From Escherichia coli (GTDB lineage: Bacteria; Pseudomonadota; Gammaproteobacteria; Enterobacterales; Enterobacteriaceae): a stretch of 64,000 nt of DNA. The notes under the pieces were generated by a model. The model was not told the DNA's origin. It was given only the letters and a program-made list of their open reading frames with translations, and did not search any database. Where the stretch lies: NCBI RefSeq assembly GCF_003334335.1, contig NZ_QOWQ01000007.1. One strand, given 5' to 3'. How positions within the stretch are numbered: the stretch's first letter is position 1; each line of letters opens with the position of its first letter. A program made the position numbers and the translations under genes. Of this stretch, positions 25,779 to 41,124 are shown in pieces.

Positions 25779-26900
25779 ATGTCAAAAGTCGCTCTCATCA
25801 CCGGTGTAACCGGACAAGACGGTTCTTACCTGGCAGAGTTTCTGCTGGAAAAAGGTTACGAGGTGCATGGTATTAAGCGTCGTGCATCGTCATTCAACAC
25901 CGAGCGCGTGGATCACATTTATCAGGATCCGCACACCTGCAACCCGAAATTCCATCTGCATTATGGCGACCTGAGTGATACCTCCAACCTGACACGCATT
26001 TTGCGTGAAGTGCAGCCGGATGAAGTTTACAACCTGGGCGCAATGAGCCACGTTGCGGTTTCTTTTGAGTCACCGGAATATACCGCAGACGTCGATGCGA
26101 TGGGTACGCTGCGCCTGCTCGAGGCGATCCGCTTCCTCGGTCTGGAAAAGAAAACCCGTTTCTATCAGGCTTCCACCTCTGAACTGTATGGTCTGGTGCA
26201 GGAAATTCCGCAGAAAGAAACCACGCCGTTCTACCCACGCTCTCCGTATGCTGTCGCCAAACTGTACGCCTACTGGATCACCGTTAACTACCGCGAATCC
26301 TACGGCATGTACGCCTGTAACGGTATTCTCTTCAACCATGAATCCCCGCGCCGCGGCGAAACCTTCGTTACCCGCAAAATCACCCGCGCAATCGCCAATA
26401 TCGCCCAGGGGCTGGAGTCGTGCCTGTACCTCGGCAATATGGATTCCCTGCGTGACTGGGGCCACGCCAAAGACTACGTAAAAATGCAGTGGATGATGCT
26501 GCAACAGGAACAGCCGGAAGATTTCGTTATCGCGACCGGCGTTCAGTACTCCGTGCGTCAGTTCGTGGAAATGGCAGCGGCACAGCTGGGCATCAAACTG
26601 CGCTTTGAAGGCACGGGTGTTGAAGAGAAGGGCATTGTGGTTTCCGTCACCGGGCATGACGCGCCGGGCGTTAAACCGGGTGATGTGATTATCGCCGTTG
26701 ATCCGCGTTACTTCCGTCCGGCTGAAGTTGAAACGCTGCTCGGCGACCCGACCAAAGCGCACGAAAAACTGGGCTGGAAACCGGAAATCACCCTCAGAGA
26801 GATGGTGTCTGAAATGGTGGCTAATGACCTCGAAGCGGCGAAAAAACACTCTCTGCTGAAATCTCACGGCTACGACGTGGCGATCGCGCTGGAGTCATAA
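25779..26900 (+). CDS. gmd: GDP-mannose 4,6-dehydratase (colanic acid copy)
   Basis: 373 aa; '[17 protein letters not shown]' Rossmann motif; high GC. Confidence 0.95.
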
Positions 26901-29572: not shown

Positions 29573-31009
29573 ATGGCGCAGTCGAAACTCTATCCAGTTG
29601 TGATGGCAGGTGGCTCCGGTAGCCGCTTATGGCCGCTTTCCCGCGTACTTTACCCCAAGCAGTTTTTATGCCTGAAAGGCGATCTCACCATGCTGCAAAC
29701 CACCATCTGCCGCCTGAACGGCGTGGAGTGCGAAAGCCCGGTGGTGATTTGCAATGAGCAGCACCGCTTTATTGTCGCGGAACAGCTGCGTCAACTGAAC
29801 AAACTCACCGAGAACATTATTCTCGAACCGGCAGGGCGTAACACTGCACCTGCCATTGCACTGGCGGCGCTGGCGGCAAAACGTCATAGCCCGGAGAGCG
29901 ACCCGTTAATGCTGGTGCTGGCGGCGGATCATGTGATTGCCGATGAAGACGCGTTCCGTGCCGCCGTGCGTAATGCCATGCCGTATGCCGAAGCGGGCAA
30001 GCTGGTGACCTTCGGCATTGTGCCGGATCTACCTGAAACCGGATATGGCTATATTCGTCGCGGTGAAGTGTCGGCGGGTGAGCAGGATACGGTGGCCTTT
30101 GAAGTGGCGCAGTTTGTCGAAAAACCGAATCTGGAAACCGCCCAGGCCTATGTGGCAAGCGGCGAATATTACTGGAACAGCGGCATGTTCCTGTTCCGCG
30201 CCGGACGCTATCTCGAAGAACTGAAAAAATATCGCCCGGATATTCTCGACGCCTGTGAACAAGCGATGAGCGCCGTCGATCCGGATCTCGATTTTATTCG
30301 CGTGGATGAAGAAGCGTTTCTGGCCTGCCCGGAAGAGTCGGTGGATTACGCGGTCATGGAACGTACGGCAGATGCCGTTGTGGTGCCGATGGATGCGGGC
30401 TGGAGCGATGTCGGTTCCTGGTCTTCATTATGGGAGATCAGCGCCCACACCGCCGAGGGCAACGTTTGCCACGGTGATGTGATTAATCACAAAACTGAAA
30501 ACAGCTATGTGTACGCCGAATCTGGCCTGGTCACCACCGTCGGGGTGAAAGATCTGGTAGTGGTGCAGACCAAAGATGCGGTGCTGATTGCCGACCGTAA
30601 CGCGGTGCAGGATGTGAAAAAAGTGGTCGAGCAGATCAAAGCCGATGGTCGCCATGAGCATCGGGTGCATCGCGAAGTGTATCGTCCGTGGGGCAAATAT
30701 GACTCTATCGACGCGGGCGACCGCTACCAGGTGAAACGCATCACCGTGAAACCGGGCGAGGGCTTGTCGGTACAGATGCACCATCACCGCGCGGAACACT
30801 GGGTAGTGGTCGCGGGAACGGCAAAAGTCACCATTGATGGTGATATCAAACTGCTTGGTGAAAACGAGTCCATTTATATTCCGCTGGGGGCGACGCACTG
30901 CCTGGAAAACCCGGGGAAAATTCCGCTCGATTTAATTGAAGTGCGCTCCGGCTCTTATCTCGAAGAGGATGATGTGGTGCGCTTCGCGGATCGCTACGGA
31001 CGGGTGTAA
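29573..31009 (+). CDS. cpsB: Mannose-1-phosphate guanylyltransferase (colanic acid copy)
   Basis: 478 aa; '[16 protein letters not shown]' nucleotidyltransferase motif. Confidence 0.95.
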
Positions 31010-31010
31010 A

Positions 31011-31111
<101 letters not shown>

Positions 31112-31201
31112 AATGAATGCGAAACCGAGATGTAAATAACGACAAAAACAAAATTGGCCGTTTCGGTCAGGGCCAACTATTGCCTGAAAAAGGGTAACGA
31201 C

Positions 31202-32572: not shown

Positions 32573-32582
32573 TGTCATTACT

Positions 32583-32678
32583 TTCCCCCTCACCCTGACG
32601 CTCTACTGCCTGCGGAGAGAAGTGAGCACGGAACTTTCTTCTCCCCCTCGCCCCTTTGGGGAGAGGGCCGGGGTGAGG
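32583..32678. repeat. GC-rich nested palindromic intergenic element (boxC-like) between cpsG and wcaJ
   Basis: 'ttccccctcaccc' and 'ttctccccctcgccc' direct repeats plus inverted 'ggggtgaggggcgagg'; family assignment from memory only. Confidence 0.4.
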
Positions 32679-32707
32679 GGCGAGGCGACAATAGAACAGG
32701 AACAACG

Positions 32708-34103: not shown

Positions 34104-35582
34104 ATGAGCTTACGTGAAAAAACCATCAGCGGCGCGAAGTGGTCGGCGATTGCCACGGTGATCATCATCGGCCTCGGGCTGGTGCAGATGACCGTGCTGG
34201 CGCGGATTATCGACAACCACCAGTTCGGCCTGCTGACTGTGTCGCTGGTGATTATCGCGCTGGCAGATACGCTTTCTGACTTTGGTATCGCTAACTCGAT
34301 TATTCAGCGAAAAGAAATCAGTCACCTTGAACTCACCACGTTGTACTGGCTGAACGTCGGGCTGGGGATCGTGGTGTGCGTGGCGGTGTTTTTGTTGAGT
34401 GATCTCATCGGCGACGTGCTGAATAACCCGGACCTGGCACCGTTGATTAAAACATTGTCGCTGGCGTTTGTGGTGATCCCCCACGGGCAACAGTTCCGCG
34501 CGTTGATGCAGAAGGAGCTGGAGTTCAACAAAATCGGCATGATCGAAACCAGCGCGGTACTGGCGGGCTTCACTTTTACGGTGGTTAGCGCCCATTTCTG
34601 GCCGCTGGCGATGACCGCGATCCTCGGTTATCTGGTCAATAGTGCGGTAAGAACGCTGCTGTTTGGCTACTTTGGTCGCAAAATTTATCGCCCCGGTCTG
34701 CATTTCTCGCTGGCGTCGGTGGCACCGAACTTACGCTTTGGTGCCTGGCTGACGGCGGACAGCATCATCAACTATCTCAATACCAACCTTTCAACGCTGG
34801 TGCTGGCGCGTATTCTCGGCGCGGGCGTGGCAGGGGGATACAACCTGGCGTACAACGTGGCCGTTGTGCCACCGATGAAGCTGAACCCAATCATCACCCG
34901 CGTGTTGTTTCCGGCATTCGCCAAAATTCAGGACGATACCGAAAAGCTGCGCGTTAACTTCTACAAGCTGCTGTCGGTAGTGGGGATTATCAACTTTCCG
35001 GCGCTGCTGGGGCTGATGGTGGTGTCGAATAACTTTGTACCGCTGGTCTTTGGTGAGAAGTGGAACAGCATTATTCCGGTGCTGCAATTGCTGTGTGTGG
35101 TGGGTCTGCTGCGTTCCGTAGGTAACCCGATTGGTTCGCTGCTGATGGCGAAAGCGCGGGTCGATATCAGCTTTAAATTCAACGTATTCAAAACCTTTCT
35201 GTTTATTCCGGCGATTGTTATTGGTGGGCAGATGGCGGGCGCAATTGGCGTCACGCTCGGCTTCCTGTTGGTACAGATTATCAACACCATTCTGAGTTAC
35301 TTCGTGATGATTAAACCGGTTCTTGGTTCCAGTTATCGCCAGTACATCCTGAGTTTGTGGCTGCCGTTTTATCTCTCGTTGCCGACGCTGGTGGTCAGTT
35401 ATGCGCTGGGCATTGTGCTGAAAGGGCAACTGGCGCTGGGGATGCTGCTGGCGGTGCAAATAGCCGCGGGCGTGCTGGCGTTTGTGGTGATGATTGTGCT
35501 GTCGCGCCATCCGCTGGTGGTGGAAGTGAAGCGTCAGTTTTGTCGCAGCGAAAAAATGAAAATGCTTTTACGGGCGGGGTGA
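34104..35582 (+). CDS. wzxC: Colanic acid flippase WzxC
   Basis: 492-aa polytopic membrane protein (MOP/Wzx family). Confidence 0.92.
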   Translation: MSLREKTISGAKWSAIATVIIIGLGLVQMTVLARIIDNHQFGLLTVSLVIIALADTLSDFGIANSIIQRKEISHLELTTLYWLNVGLGIVVCVAVFLLSDLIGDVLNNPDLAPLIKTLSLAFVVIPHGQQFRALMQKELEFNKIGMIETSAVLAGFTFTVVSAHFWPLAMTAILGYLVNSAVRTLLFGYFGRKIYRPGLHFSLASVAPNLRFGAWLTADSIINYLNTNLSTLVLARILGAGVAGGYNLAYNVAVVPPMKLNPIITRVLFPAFAKIQDDTEKLRVNFYKLLSVVGIINFPALLGLMVVSNNFVPLVFGEKWNSIIPVLQLLCVVGLLRSVGNPIGSLLMAKARVDISFKFNVFKTFLFIPAIVIGGQMAGAIGVTLGFLLVQIINTILSYFVMIKPVLGSSYRQYILSLWLPFYLSLPTLVVSYALGIVLKGQLALGMLLAVQIAAGVLAFVVMIVLSRHPLVVEVKRQFCRSEKMKMLLRAG

Positions 35583-35610
35583 GTTGCTGTTTTCGGTTCC
35601 GACAACGGTT

Positions 35611-35796
35611 GCCGGATGCGGCGTAAAACGCCTTATCCATCCTACGGTTCCGTGCTCGGGACCTGTAGGCCTGATAAGACGCGTCAGCGTCGCATCAGGC
35701 ACTGAATGCCGGATGCGGCGTGAACGCCTTATCCGGCCTACGGTTCTGTGCTCGGGTCTTGTAGGCCTGATAAGACGCGTCAGCGTCGCATCAGGC
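35611..35796. repeat. Tandem BIME (two near-identical units of about 90 bp of paired REP palindromes) between wzxC and wcaK
   Basis: Unit 1 at 35611-35700 and unit 2 at 35709-35796 are almost identical ('gccggatgcggcgt.aacgccttatcc...gtaggcctgataagacgcgtcagcgtcgcatcaggc'). Confidence 0.85.
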
Positions 35797-35856
35797 AAAA
35801 AGCGGCAACGAACAAAACAAACACAGCCCACCTGGCATCAAATTTATGAGGAAAAA

Positions 35857-37137
35857 ATGAAATTACTTATTCTGGGCAACCACACTTGCGGCAATCGTGG
35901 CGACAGCGCCATCCTGCGCGGCTTACTTGATGCCATCAACATCCTCAATCCACACGCCGAAGTGGACGTGATGAGCCGCTATCCGGTCAGTTCTTCCTGG
36001 CTGCTCAACCGCCCGGTAATGGGCGATCCGCTGTTCCTGCAAATGAAACAACACAACAGCGCGGCGGGCGTTGTCGGGCGCGTTAAAAAAGTCCTCCGTC
36101 GCCGCTACCAGCATCAGGTATTGCTCTCACGCGTCACCGACACTGGCAAGCTGCGTAATATCGCCATCGCCCAGGGATTCACCGACTTCGTGCGCCTGCT
36201 GTCAGATTACGACGCCATTATTCAGGTCGGCGGATCGTTTTTTGTCGATCTCTACGGCGTGCCGCAGTTTGAACATGCACTTTGCACGTTTATGGCGAAA
36301 AAGCCGCTGTTTATGATTGGTCACAGCGTCGGTCCCTTCCAGGATGAGCAATTTAACCAACTGGCGAACTACGTTTTTGGTCACTGCGACGCGCTGATCC
36401 TGCGCGAATCGGTCAGCCTTGATCTGATGAAACGCAGCAATATCACTACCGCAAAAGTGGAACATGGCGTCGATACCGCGTGGCTGGTCGATCACCACAC
36501 AGAAGAATTCACCGCCAGCTATGCCGTTCAACATTGGCTGGACGTTGCCGCACAACAGAAAACGGTGGCAATTACCCTGCGCGAACTGGCACCGTTCGAC
36601 AAACGTCTCGGCACCACTCAACAAGCGTATGAAAAAGCCTTTGCCGGGGTGGTCAATCGCATTCTCGACGAAGGCTATCAGGTTATTGCGCTCTCCACCT
36701 GTACGGGCATCGACAGCTATAATAAAGACGACCGCATGGTGGCGCTCAATCTTCGCCAGCACATCAGCGATCCTGCCCGTTACCACGTGGTGATGGATGA
36801 ACTCAACGATCTGGAAATGGGCAAAATTCTCGGAGCCTGTCAACTCACCGTCGGTACGCGTCTGCACTCAGCCATTATCTCGATGAATTTCTCCACTCCG
36901 GCAATTGCCATCAACTACGAACATAAATCCGCCGGGATTATGCAGCAGCTGGGGCTGCCAGAGATGGCGATCGATATCCGTCATTTATTAGATGGCAGCC
37001 TGCAAGCGATGGTTGCGGATACCTTAGGCCAGCTTCCGGCGCTGAACGCACGACTTAGCGAAGCCGTCAGTCGCGAACGTCAGACGGGAATGCAGATGGT
37101 GCAATCTGTGCTTGAGCGCATCGGGGAGGTGAAATGA
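35857..37137 (+). CDS. wcaK: Colanic acid pyruvyl transferase WcaK
   Basis: Start at ATG 35857 (MKLLILGNHTCGNRGD...) giving 426 aa; the ORF track extends through the REP array and is not coding there. Confidence 0.9.
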   Translation: MKLLILGNHTCGNRGDSAILRGLLDAINILNPHAEVDVMSRYPVSSSWLLNRPVMGDPLFLQMKQHNSAAGVVGRVKKVLRRRYQHQVLLSRVTDTGKLRNIAIAQGFTDFVRLLSDYDAIIQVGGSFFVDLYGVPQFEHALCTFMAKKPLFMIGHSVGPFQDEQFNQLANYVFGHCDALILRESVSLDLMKRSNITTAKVEHGVDTAWLVDHHTEEFTASYAVQHWLDVAAQQKTVAITLRELAPFDKRLGTTQQAYEKAFAGVVNRILDEGYQVIALSTCTGIDSYNKDDRMVALNLRQHISDPARYHVVMDELNDLEMGKILGACQLTVGTRLHSAIISMNFSTPAIAINYEHKSAGIMQQLGLPEMAIDIRHLLDGSLQAMVADTLGQLPALNARLSEAVSRERQTGMQMVQSVLERIGEVK

Positions 37138-41085: not shown

Positions 41086-41124
41086 CAGTGCTCTGGTAGC
41101 TGTAAAGCCAGGGGCGGTAGCGTG
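41086..41124 (+). promoter_or_regulatory. JUMPstart element with ops site (GGCGGTAGCGTG at 41113-41124) upstream of the O-antigen cluster
   Basis: 39-bp 'cagtgctctggtagctgtaaagccaggggcggtagcgtg'. Confidence 0.88.

Follow-up and report, generated by a model that had tools for sequence, protein, structure and literature searches.

A BIME-2-type array of strain-variable length between wzxC and wcaK in the Escherichia coli colanic-acid operon

Introduction

BIME-2 elements, defined in work by Gilson, Bachellier and co-workers and set out again by Ton-Hoang et al. 2012, combine Y and Z2 REPs in tandem arrays whose length varies between strains (PMC3333891). An array of Y/Z2-type hairpins with a described effect on expression is REP325, the source of naRNA4, which lies between the co-directional genes of the yjdM-yjdN operon. 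When REP325 is deleted, the yjdM transcript falls and yjdN goes up about 8-10-fold, and the array has been interpreted as a stabiliser combined with a partly Rho-dependent attenuator (bioRxiv 10.64898/2026.03.23.713779). Rho dependence was seen with the full array of 12 hairpins only, fragments of 2-4 hairpins showing none, and the same study stresses for REP325 that REP effects depend strongly on context (bioRxiv 10.64898/2026.03.23.713779). Genome-wide, tandem gene pairs separated by REPs have a higher ratio of upstream to downstream expression. A further rule, cited in PMC12306157, holds that a gene is translated less when a REP hairpin begins 15 nt or less past its stop codon.

REPs of the colanic-acid operon have also been described. 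Iguchi et al. 2011 reported REPs, with insertions and deletions of REPs among strains, in the wcaK-wzxC, cpsG-cpsB and wcaA-wzc gaps; at wcaK-wzxC, the REP indels coincide with a shift in sequence similarity (PMC3158064). That comparison covered a handful of O157 strains, whereas the sampling presented here covers about 118 complete genomes and spans 0-6 units. A stem-loop transcriptional attenuator just after wzc is cited in PMC2516531, and Klebsiella cps clusters have a predicted stem-loop between wzc and wbaP. The published attenuator concerns the wzc-wcaA block, not the array between wzxC and wcaK that is the subject of this report. K-12 MG1655 carries the same two-unit array at wzxC-wcaK, in the same 275-nt gap, as the DNA studied here; the version of the NC_000913.3 annotation that we used does not list REP or repeat features. 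Earlier publications thus cover the element and the family it belongs to, its occurrence at this locus in K-12 and the strain-variable copy number of BIME-2, and these carry little weight as discovery. Here, we describe the anatomy of the array, its length spectrum among E. coli genomes and its probable consequences for the operon.

Materials and Methods

REPs were called by blastn-short against Y, Z1 and Z2 REP consensus sequences. The perfect matches obtained support these consensus sequences. The identities of wzxC, wcaK, wzc, wcaA, cpsB and cpsG were taken from the RefSeq annotation of matching genomes. For copy number at wzxC-wcaK, a 600-nt query consisting of the unique flanks only was used, and match length was converted to insert size. 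Two evenly spaced samples of 60 rows each were drawn from 4642 and 4693 matching genomes; 118 rows were informative and were pooled. For comparison with other species, 120 loci were retrieved from one-genome-per-species contigs with a degenerate DNA pattern representing the N-terminus of WcaK.

Results and Discussion

The window, meaning the whole 64,000-nt stretch of E. coli DNA that was analyzed (contig NZ_QOWQ01000007.1), contains the colanic-acid (cps/wca) cluster followed by the O-antigen cluster. In the RefSeq annotation of matching genomes the gene order is wza-wzb-wzc-wcaA...cpsB-cpsG-wcaJ-wzxC-wcaK-wcaL-wcaM. The operon's RfaH loading site, a JUMPstart element whose ops core is GGCGGTAG (16574), lies upstream of wza at 16547-16585 on the plus strand. 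A second JUMPstart with ops core GGCGGTAG precedes the O-antigen cluster (41086-41124, plus strand). With an 801-nt query around the array, every colanic-acid-bearing complete genome gave a match at wzxC and wcaK; identity was 100% for strain EC21Z-147 and 98.6% for K-12 MG1655. Upstream of the cps operon, the window also holds two more REPs, a Z2 copy (14269-14305; 35/37) and a short Z-type stem (7383-7408).

The upstream neighbor of the array is wzxC, encoding the colanic-acid repeat-unit flippase (34104-35582, plus strand, TGA stop at 35580-35582; assigned from the ORF list and the RefSeq annotation of matching genomes), and the downstream neighbor is wcaK, encoding a pyruvyl transferase (35858-37137, plus strand). 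The untranslated gap of 275 nt that holds the array extends from the wzxC stop (35582) to the wcaK ATG (35858). An initial annotation of this DNA had proposed that a BIME composed of REP pairs is duplicated in tandem within the cps operon at wzxC-wcaK, and both the repeat structure and the REP consensus matches bear this out. Tandem Repeats Finder called 35610-35797 as the sole array at the site (period 96, 1.9 copies, 92% matches, score 327), within 1 nt of the 35611-35796 given earlier. The two near-identical units, originally put at about 90 bp, have a period of 96 nt, and the copies are 93% identical over 75 nt.

By blastn-short, the REPs of the array follow one another in the order Y(+), Z2(-), Y(+), Z2(-), and three of the four are perfect consensus matches, the first Y being degenerate. 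Unit 1 opens with this Y-type REP in iREP orientation (35610-35645, plus strand, 3' CTAC), which reads CCATCC for CCGGCC, begins 27 nt past the wzxC stop and has a predicted RNA hairpin of -13.7 kcal/mol. A head-to-head linker of 19 nt, GGTTCCGTGCTCGGGACCT (35646-35664, plus strand), leads to a Z2-type REP on the minus strand (35665-35701; 37/37 to consensus; 5' GTAGG when read on the plus strand) with a hairpin of -21.9 kcal/mol. The tail-to-tail linker CTGAA, 5 nt long (35702-35706, plus strand), joins unit 1 to unit 2, in which a Y-type REP (35707-35741, plus strand; 35/35 to consensus; RNA hairpin -21.3 kcal/mol), a second 19-nt head-to-head linker, GGTTCTGTGCTCGGGTCTT (35742-35760, plus strand), and a Z2-type REP (35761-35797, minus strand; 37/37 to consensus) repeat the arrangement. 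Between the array and wcaK lies an A/C-rich spacer of 60 nt (35798-35857, plus strand; C/G ratio 1.4) that contains the wcaK Shine-Dalgarno sequence GAGG. The REP head motif CTTATCMGGCCTAC, with up to two mismatches allowed, was found at 10 places in the window; shuffling predicts 0.46, and none of 100 shuffles reached 10.

An 8-nt direct repeat, CGRCAACG (CGACAACG / CGGCAACG), borders the array at 35600-35609 and 35803-35810, and the empty allele (L005 883-954) has a single copy of it. This repeat could be a target-site duplication or a deletion substrate. REP and BIME movement is not expected to create target-site duplications, and the left flank of the array resembles a decayed Z2 tail plus linker (74%). 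Because deletion between the 8-nt repeats explains the empty allele equally well, a target-site duplication is not singled out.

Judged by its sequence, the array is a canonical BIME-2, with every feature by which the family is recognized at this level. Y and Z2 REPs are both present (Z2 at 37/37 twice, Y at 35/35 once, and one degenerate Y), and REP and iREP alternate with GTAG/CTAC heads, both Y copies ending in CTAC and both Z2 copies beginning with GTAG on the plus strand. Copies are in tandem and separated by short linkers (period 96, 1.9 copies; 19 and 5 nt), the site is extragenic (the wzxC-wcaK gap), and unit number varies between strains (0-6 units in the two 60-row samples). Compared with the family as described, the window array is a plain member, the degenerate first Y (CCATCC versus CCGGCC) being its sole deviation. 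Membership of BIME-1 (RIB/RIP), which pairs Y with Z1 and has a long L linker with an IHF site, was considered and rejected. Matches to Z1 were confined to the 14-nt head common to Z2, and the IHF consensus WATCAANNNNTTR had no match in any of the three REP gaps; the array is not a BIME-1 since it has neither a Z1 REP nor an IHF consensus.

The tail-to-tail junction of the array also matches the Rfam naRNA4 model (RF02564) with 79.7 bits against a gathering threshold of 59.5, on the minus strand at 35668-35738. This score is the argument for a naRNA4-like gene of a nucleoid-associated small RNA on that strand, a reading we hold to be extremely improbable. RF02564 describes a tail-to-tail Y/Z2 pair, which any BIME-2 would match, so the hit only restates BIME-2 identity; the linker concerned is 5 nt in the window array versus approximately 13 nt in the model. 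Moreover, the match is antisense to the operon, the sense strand stays below threshold (55.4 bits), no promoter-like site was found, and REP325/naRNA4 itself does not compact the nucleoid (bioRxiv 10.64898/2026.03.23.713779). A search of the wzxC-wcaK gap for sigma-70-like promoters was likewise negative.

As a typical BIME-2, the array might instead act as DNA, serving as a site of DNA gyrase binding and cleavage that relieves supercoiling generated by transcription of this operon of about 20 kb encoding membrane proteins. Sequence prerequisites for gyrase and for TnpA-REP appear to be present, namely the GTAG tetranucleotide and an imperfect stem interrupted by an internal mismatch. BIME-2 elements are in vivo gyrase targets according to Espeli & Boccard 1997, a work entered in the reference list of PMC12306157, and binding of gyrase to REPs is cited in PMC3158064. 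Nothing specific to the wzxC-wcaK locus was found for such a role, however, and the alleles without an array described below argue against its necessity. We therefore rate a gyrase function at this site as unlikely.

The ORF track does run spuriously through the REP blocks, as had been remarked, with ORFs at 35584-37137 (plus strand), 20341-20691 (minus strand) and 30846-31151 (minus strand). The first starts at a TTG, is in the wcaK frame and is a mechanical extension of wcaK through the array. In nearly all of the 120 loci from other species, the start corresponding to the wcaK ATG at 35858 is located 18 nt upstream of the conserved GNHTCGNRGD motif, and because the position of this ATG is conserved relative to the motif, the TTG-started ORF is considered spurious. 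Coding potential across the array was accordingly rejected on the strength of the ORF list and the conserved wcaK start. Annotation pipelines should avoid ORF calls through the REP gaps.

The initial annotation also placed further REP blocks at wzc-wcaA (20521-20632) and cpsB-cpsG (31011-31111), and consensus comparison confirmed both. The wzc-wcaA block (20529-20632, plus strand) occupies a 177-nt gap and consists of a REP hairpin (20529-20567) that starts 11 nt past the wzc stop, a partial Y (20566-20583) and an inverted Y(-) (20598-20632). At cpsB-cpsG is a BIME-2 with one 88-nt unit (31011-31112, plus strand), made of a Z2-tail footprint (31011-31022) that directly abuts the cpsB stop, Y(+) (31033-31067) and Z2(-) (31076-31112); its first hairpin begins 21 nt past the stop. 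The 15-nt rule for REP hairpins thus applies at wzc only (11 nt), and not at wzxC (27 nt) or cpsB (21 nt). The gaps measure 177 nt in the window versus 92 nt in K-12 at wzc-wcaA, and 192 versus 104 nt at cpsB-cpsG. In NC_000913.3 the three gaps occupy 2,118,405-2,118,679 (wzxC-wcaK), 2,122,980-2,123,083 (cpsB-cpsG) and 2,133,398-2,133,489 (wzc-wcaA).

Two further elements lie in this part of the operon. Between the cpsB-cpsG BIME and the cpsG ATG (31202) is an algC RNA motif (Rfam RF02929; 31148-31197, plus strand; 78.2 bits against a gathering threshold of 33.8). Its core, GGTCAGGGCCAACTGTTGCCTGAAAAAGGG, is conserved and precedes cpsG in 13 of the 14 other Enterobacteriaceae species compared, each time after the REP-type hairpin of the respective genus. 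The cpsG-wcaJ gap (32573-32707) measures 135 nt versus 54 nt in K-12 and contains a GC-rich boxC-like palindromic element, the full 120 nt of which are found in 509 of 5426 E. coli genomes, with a core of 45-55 nt at 1-6 places per genome.

A comparison of BIME copy number among E. coli genomes had been proposed for the wzxC-wcaK site. It revealed 0-6 units, and the other two gaps vary too. Among the 118 informative rows, two units were most frequent (31 rows), followed by one unit (21), four units (15, a class defined by match length alone), no unit (14), five units (11), three units (9) and six units (7). Three rows had a Y-only remnant and seven had an unrelated gap of 161 nt, as in BL21. 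Alleles of 0, 1, 2, 3, 5 and 6 units were read directly. Natural carriers include PD23 (0 units), ecoli019 (1), MG1655 (2), ATCC 25922 (4) and CRE287 (6). Approximately 12% of sampled genomes therefore have no unit at all, and about 6% have unrelated sequence at this site; the wzxC/wcaK match is absent from about 730-780 of 5426 genomes. The possibility that the 0-unit allele resides on a much more divergent haplotype was rejected, as its flanks share about 97% identity with the window, no less than those of other alleles, and its lower BLAST identity is due to the junction. A separate case is E. coli EC6 (L135), which has a foreign distal cps segment (flippase-wcaK-wcaL-wcaM) with a wcaK about 71% identical to that of the window, a flippase-wcaK gap of 29 nt and a truncated manC upstream.

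In 59 sampled rows, the cpsB-cpsG BIME-2, with a period of 88 nt, had no unit in 19, one in 30, two in 8, and three and four in one row each. K-12 is among the 0-unit rows and retains the Z2-tail footprint; the window is among the 1-unit rows. Natural hairpin numbers consequently span 0-12 at wzxC-wcaK and 0-8 at cpsB-cpsG. The wzc-wcaA gap of 59 sampled genomes was 92 nt in 31 (K-12 type), 95 nt in 2, 128 nt in 8 and 177 nt in 18 (window type), and at least one REP hairpin is kept in all five sequences read (two 92-nt alleles plus single ones of 95, 128 and 177 nt). In the alleles read from these four length classes a REP hairpin is located directly 3' of wzc, the position of the published attenuator. 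REP hairpins are not classical intrinsic terminators, because they have no U-tract, as checked for the wzxC-wcaK gap. No terminator-like site was found there on either strand between 35300 and 36100, and the last Z2 is followed by AAAAAG.

Unit number is stable within lineages: all K-12 derivatives seen have two units, and all O157:H7 strains seen have one. Such stability indicates a slow minisatellite and not a phase-variable locus. It also fits the view that the array is a neutral or selfish passenger, a BIME-2 that sits in a harmless gap of a packed operon, drifts like a minisatellite and has no measurable effect on cps genes. The broad spectrum of 0-6 units with no dominant state speaks for this view, as do the alleles that lack any unit, keep a remnant or carry unrelated sequence. 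We consider it a tentative possibility, for reasons that emerge from the predicted RNA folds below. Copy-number variation in itself provides no evidence of a dosage role.

Length steps correspond to whole units, 96 nt at wzxC-wcaK and 88 nt at cpsB-cpsG. In a 4-unit array the internal units do not differ from each other, a 6-unit array contains duplicated two-unit blocks, and array deletions fall between short direct repeats. Changes in length would arise by unequal recombination or by slippage in register, possibly assisted by the REP-associated transposase TnpA-REP. In strain 30EVA2, the wzxC-wcaK gap (L136 374-544) holds a single unit that is closer to cpsB-cpsG units (92-93% identity) than to the usual wzxC-wcaK units (only 80-82%). 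This affinity implies exchange between two arrays 4.6 kb apart and, to judge from the unit's sequence, suggests ectopic conversion or transposition between arrays of one operon.

The 30EVA2 exchange can also be read as a sign that the REP arrays are recombination junctions, at which homologous exchange of the O-antigen and distal cps region between lineages breaks and joins. The coincidence of REP indels with similarity changes at wcaK-wzxC (Iguchi et al. 2011, PMC3158064), the wholly different gap sequence of BL21-type strains and the start of the foreign EC6 segment at about this point are all in keeping with that role. Flank identities, however, show no sharp difference across the array (97-100% next to wzxC and 97-98% next to wcaK in the alleles examined), and the published evidence is correlative and drawn from few cases. 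A function as recombination junction thus seems quite unlikely.

Outside E. coli, the array is largely missing from this position. The median length of the wzxC-wcaK gap is 30 nt in the 72 Enterobacteriaceae species with wzxC directly upstream, of which 47 have an essentially unstructured gap of at most 45 nt. The gap reaches at least 100 nt in 17 species; the 16 that are not E. coli hold other palindromic repeats, and the 17th genome, E. coli E69, has one Y/Z2 unit. GC-rich boxC-like elements are found in Pluralibacter, Lelliottia, Enterobacter, Buttiauxella and Kosakonia, and REP pairs in Citrobacter. Absence of the array from this position in most other Enterobacteriaceae marks it as an Escherichia-specific insertion into a gap that has repeatedly accepted such elements. 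Sequence comparison argues that the gap is colonized independently by unrelated repeat families. In BL21-type E. coli (BL21, L006 883-1043) and in loci from several other genera (L043, L060, L108, L111, L116, L118 and L122), the wzxC-wcaK gap contains boxC-like CCCTCTCCC...GGGAGAGGG palindromes, not REPs. Both the short unstructured gap of most species and the unrelated palindromes of other genera, whether boxC-like or their own REPs, add to the case for a neutral passenger.

The cpsB-cpsG gap is organized differently in these species: 13 of 14 have a REP-type hairpin of their own genus right after cpsB, followed by the conserved algC RNA motif. Citrobacter sp. On2M (L097) has about five tandem GCCTGAT heptamers directly after cpsB that resemble a REP stem arm. 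In Superficieibacter (L072) the gap is 350 nt long and holds an array of five REPs.

Predicted RNA structure is where a passenger without effect becomes harder to accept. The RNA of the wzxC-wcaK gap has a predicted fold of -139 kcal/mol (z = -8.95); predicted values are -14 to -22 kcal/mol for single REPs and -114 kcal/mol for the whole array. The ribosome-binding site of wcaK (GAGG) is unpaired in the predicted fold of the gap. A structure of -114 kcal/mol in the mRNA is unlikely to be without any effect on decay or elongation. The large effects of the comparable REP325 array and the higher upstream/downstream expression ratio at REP-separated tandem pairs also tell against a purely neutral element.

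We therefore favor an effect at the level of mRNA. Upon transcription of the Rcs-activated, ops/RfaH-equipped operon, the array would fold within the message into very stable hairpins. These would block 3'->5' exonucleases and thereby stabilize the wza...wzxC segment, and would act as a weak, probably length-dependent attenuator of transcripts that reach wcaK-wcaL-wcaM. By analogy with REP325, the most likely outcome is protection of the upstream transcript together with a modest reduction of read-through into wcaK-wcaL-wcaM. The parallel with REP325 is one of covariance-model match and of proposed action, in which upstream mRNA would be stabilized and the downstream gene attenuated. The two systems differ in size, REP325 having 12 hairpins versus four in the window array (0-12 in natural wzxC-wcaK alleles), and in the ops/RfaH site present in the cps operon. 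Through ops/JUMPstart, RfaH may suppress Rho-dependent attenuation at the cps REP blocks. With only four hairpins, JUMPstart/ops opposing Rho, and natural alleles of 0 units, the effect is expected to be weak or conditional. The 0-unit alleles (about 12%), the unrelated gaps (about 6%) and the short gaps in 47 of 72 species further indicate that any role of the array is non-essential, and modulation of gene dosage would then be a dispensable side-effect instead of a dedicated regulatory device. Taken as a whole, the account of a BIME-2 that changes length in unit steps, and whose mRNA hairpins stabilize upstream and weakly attenuate downstream in a dispensable manner, is in our judgment probable. 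The earlier suggestion that cps REPs act as stabilizers or attenuators and so influence gene dosage agrees with published REP work and is plausible on that basis. A literature search found no RNA-seq paper naming wzxC, wcaK, wcaA and wzc together.

A stronger version of the mRNA effect, which we regard as doubtful, would make the cps BIME-2 arrays heritable rheostats of operon polarity, each unit lowering read-through or raising upstream stability by a step. If so, lineages would differ in the ratio of late (wcaK, wcaL, wcaM) to early cps genes, and colanic-acid yield or pyruvylation would differ with promoter and coding sequence unchanged. The near-universal REP hairpin after cpsB (13 of 14 species) would then reflect selection for a structured junction element. 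The natural series of 0-6 units at a single intra-operon site is a ready test set for length-dependent tuning of polarity by REPs.

Length polymorphism in three cps gaps, or four with cpsG-wcaJ, also matters for designing primers, for typing and for assembling sequence near the O-antigen locus. Other repeats in the window lie outside the REP gaps. A 300-nt direct repeat, 80% identical between 47373-47672 and 26049-26348, marks an additional gmd copy within the O-antigen cluster; this copy is part of a second GDP-fucose/mannose gene set and is a possible recombination substrate with the cps genes. Near the start of the window, three tandem repeats of about 330 nt (77-799) constitute an Ibs/Sib toxin-antitoxin repeat region, with Sib antitoxin RNAs (Rfam RF00113) on the minus strand at 320-462 and 649-797.
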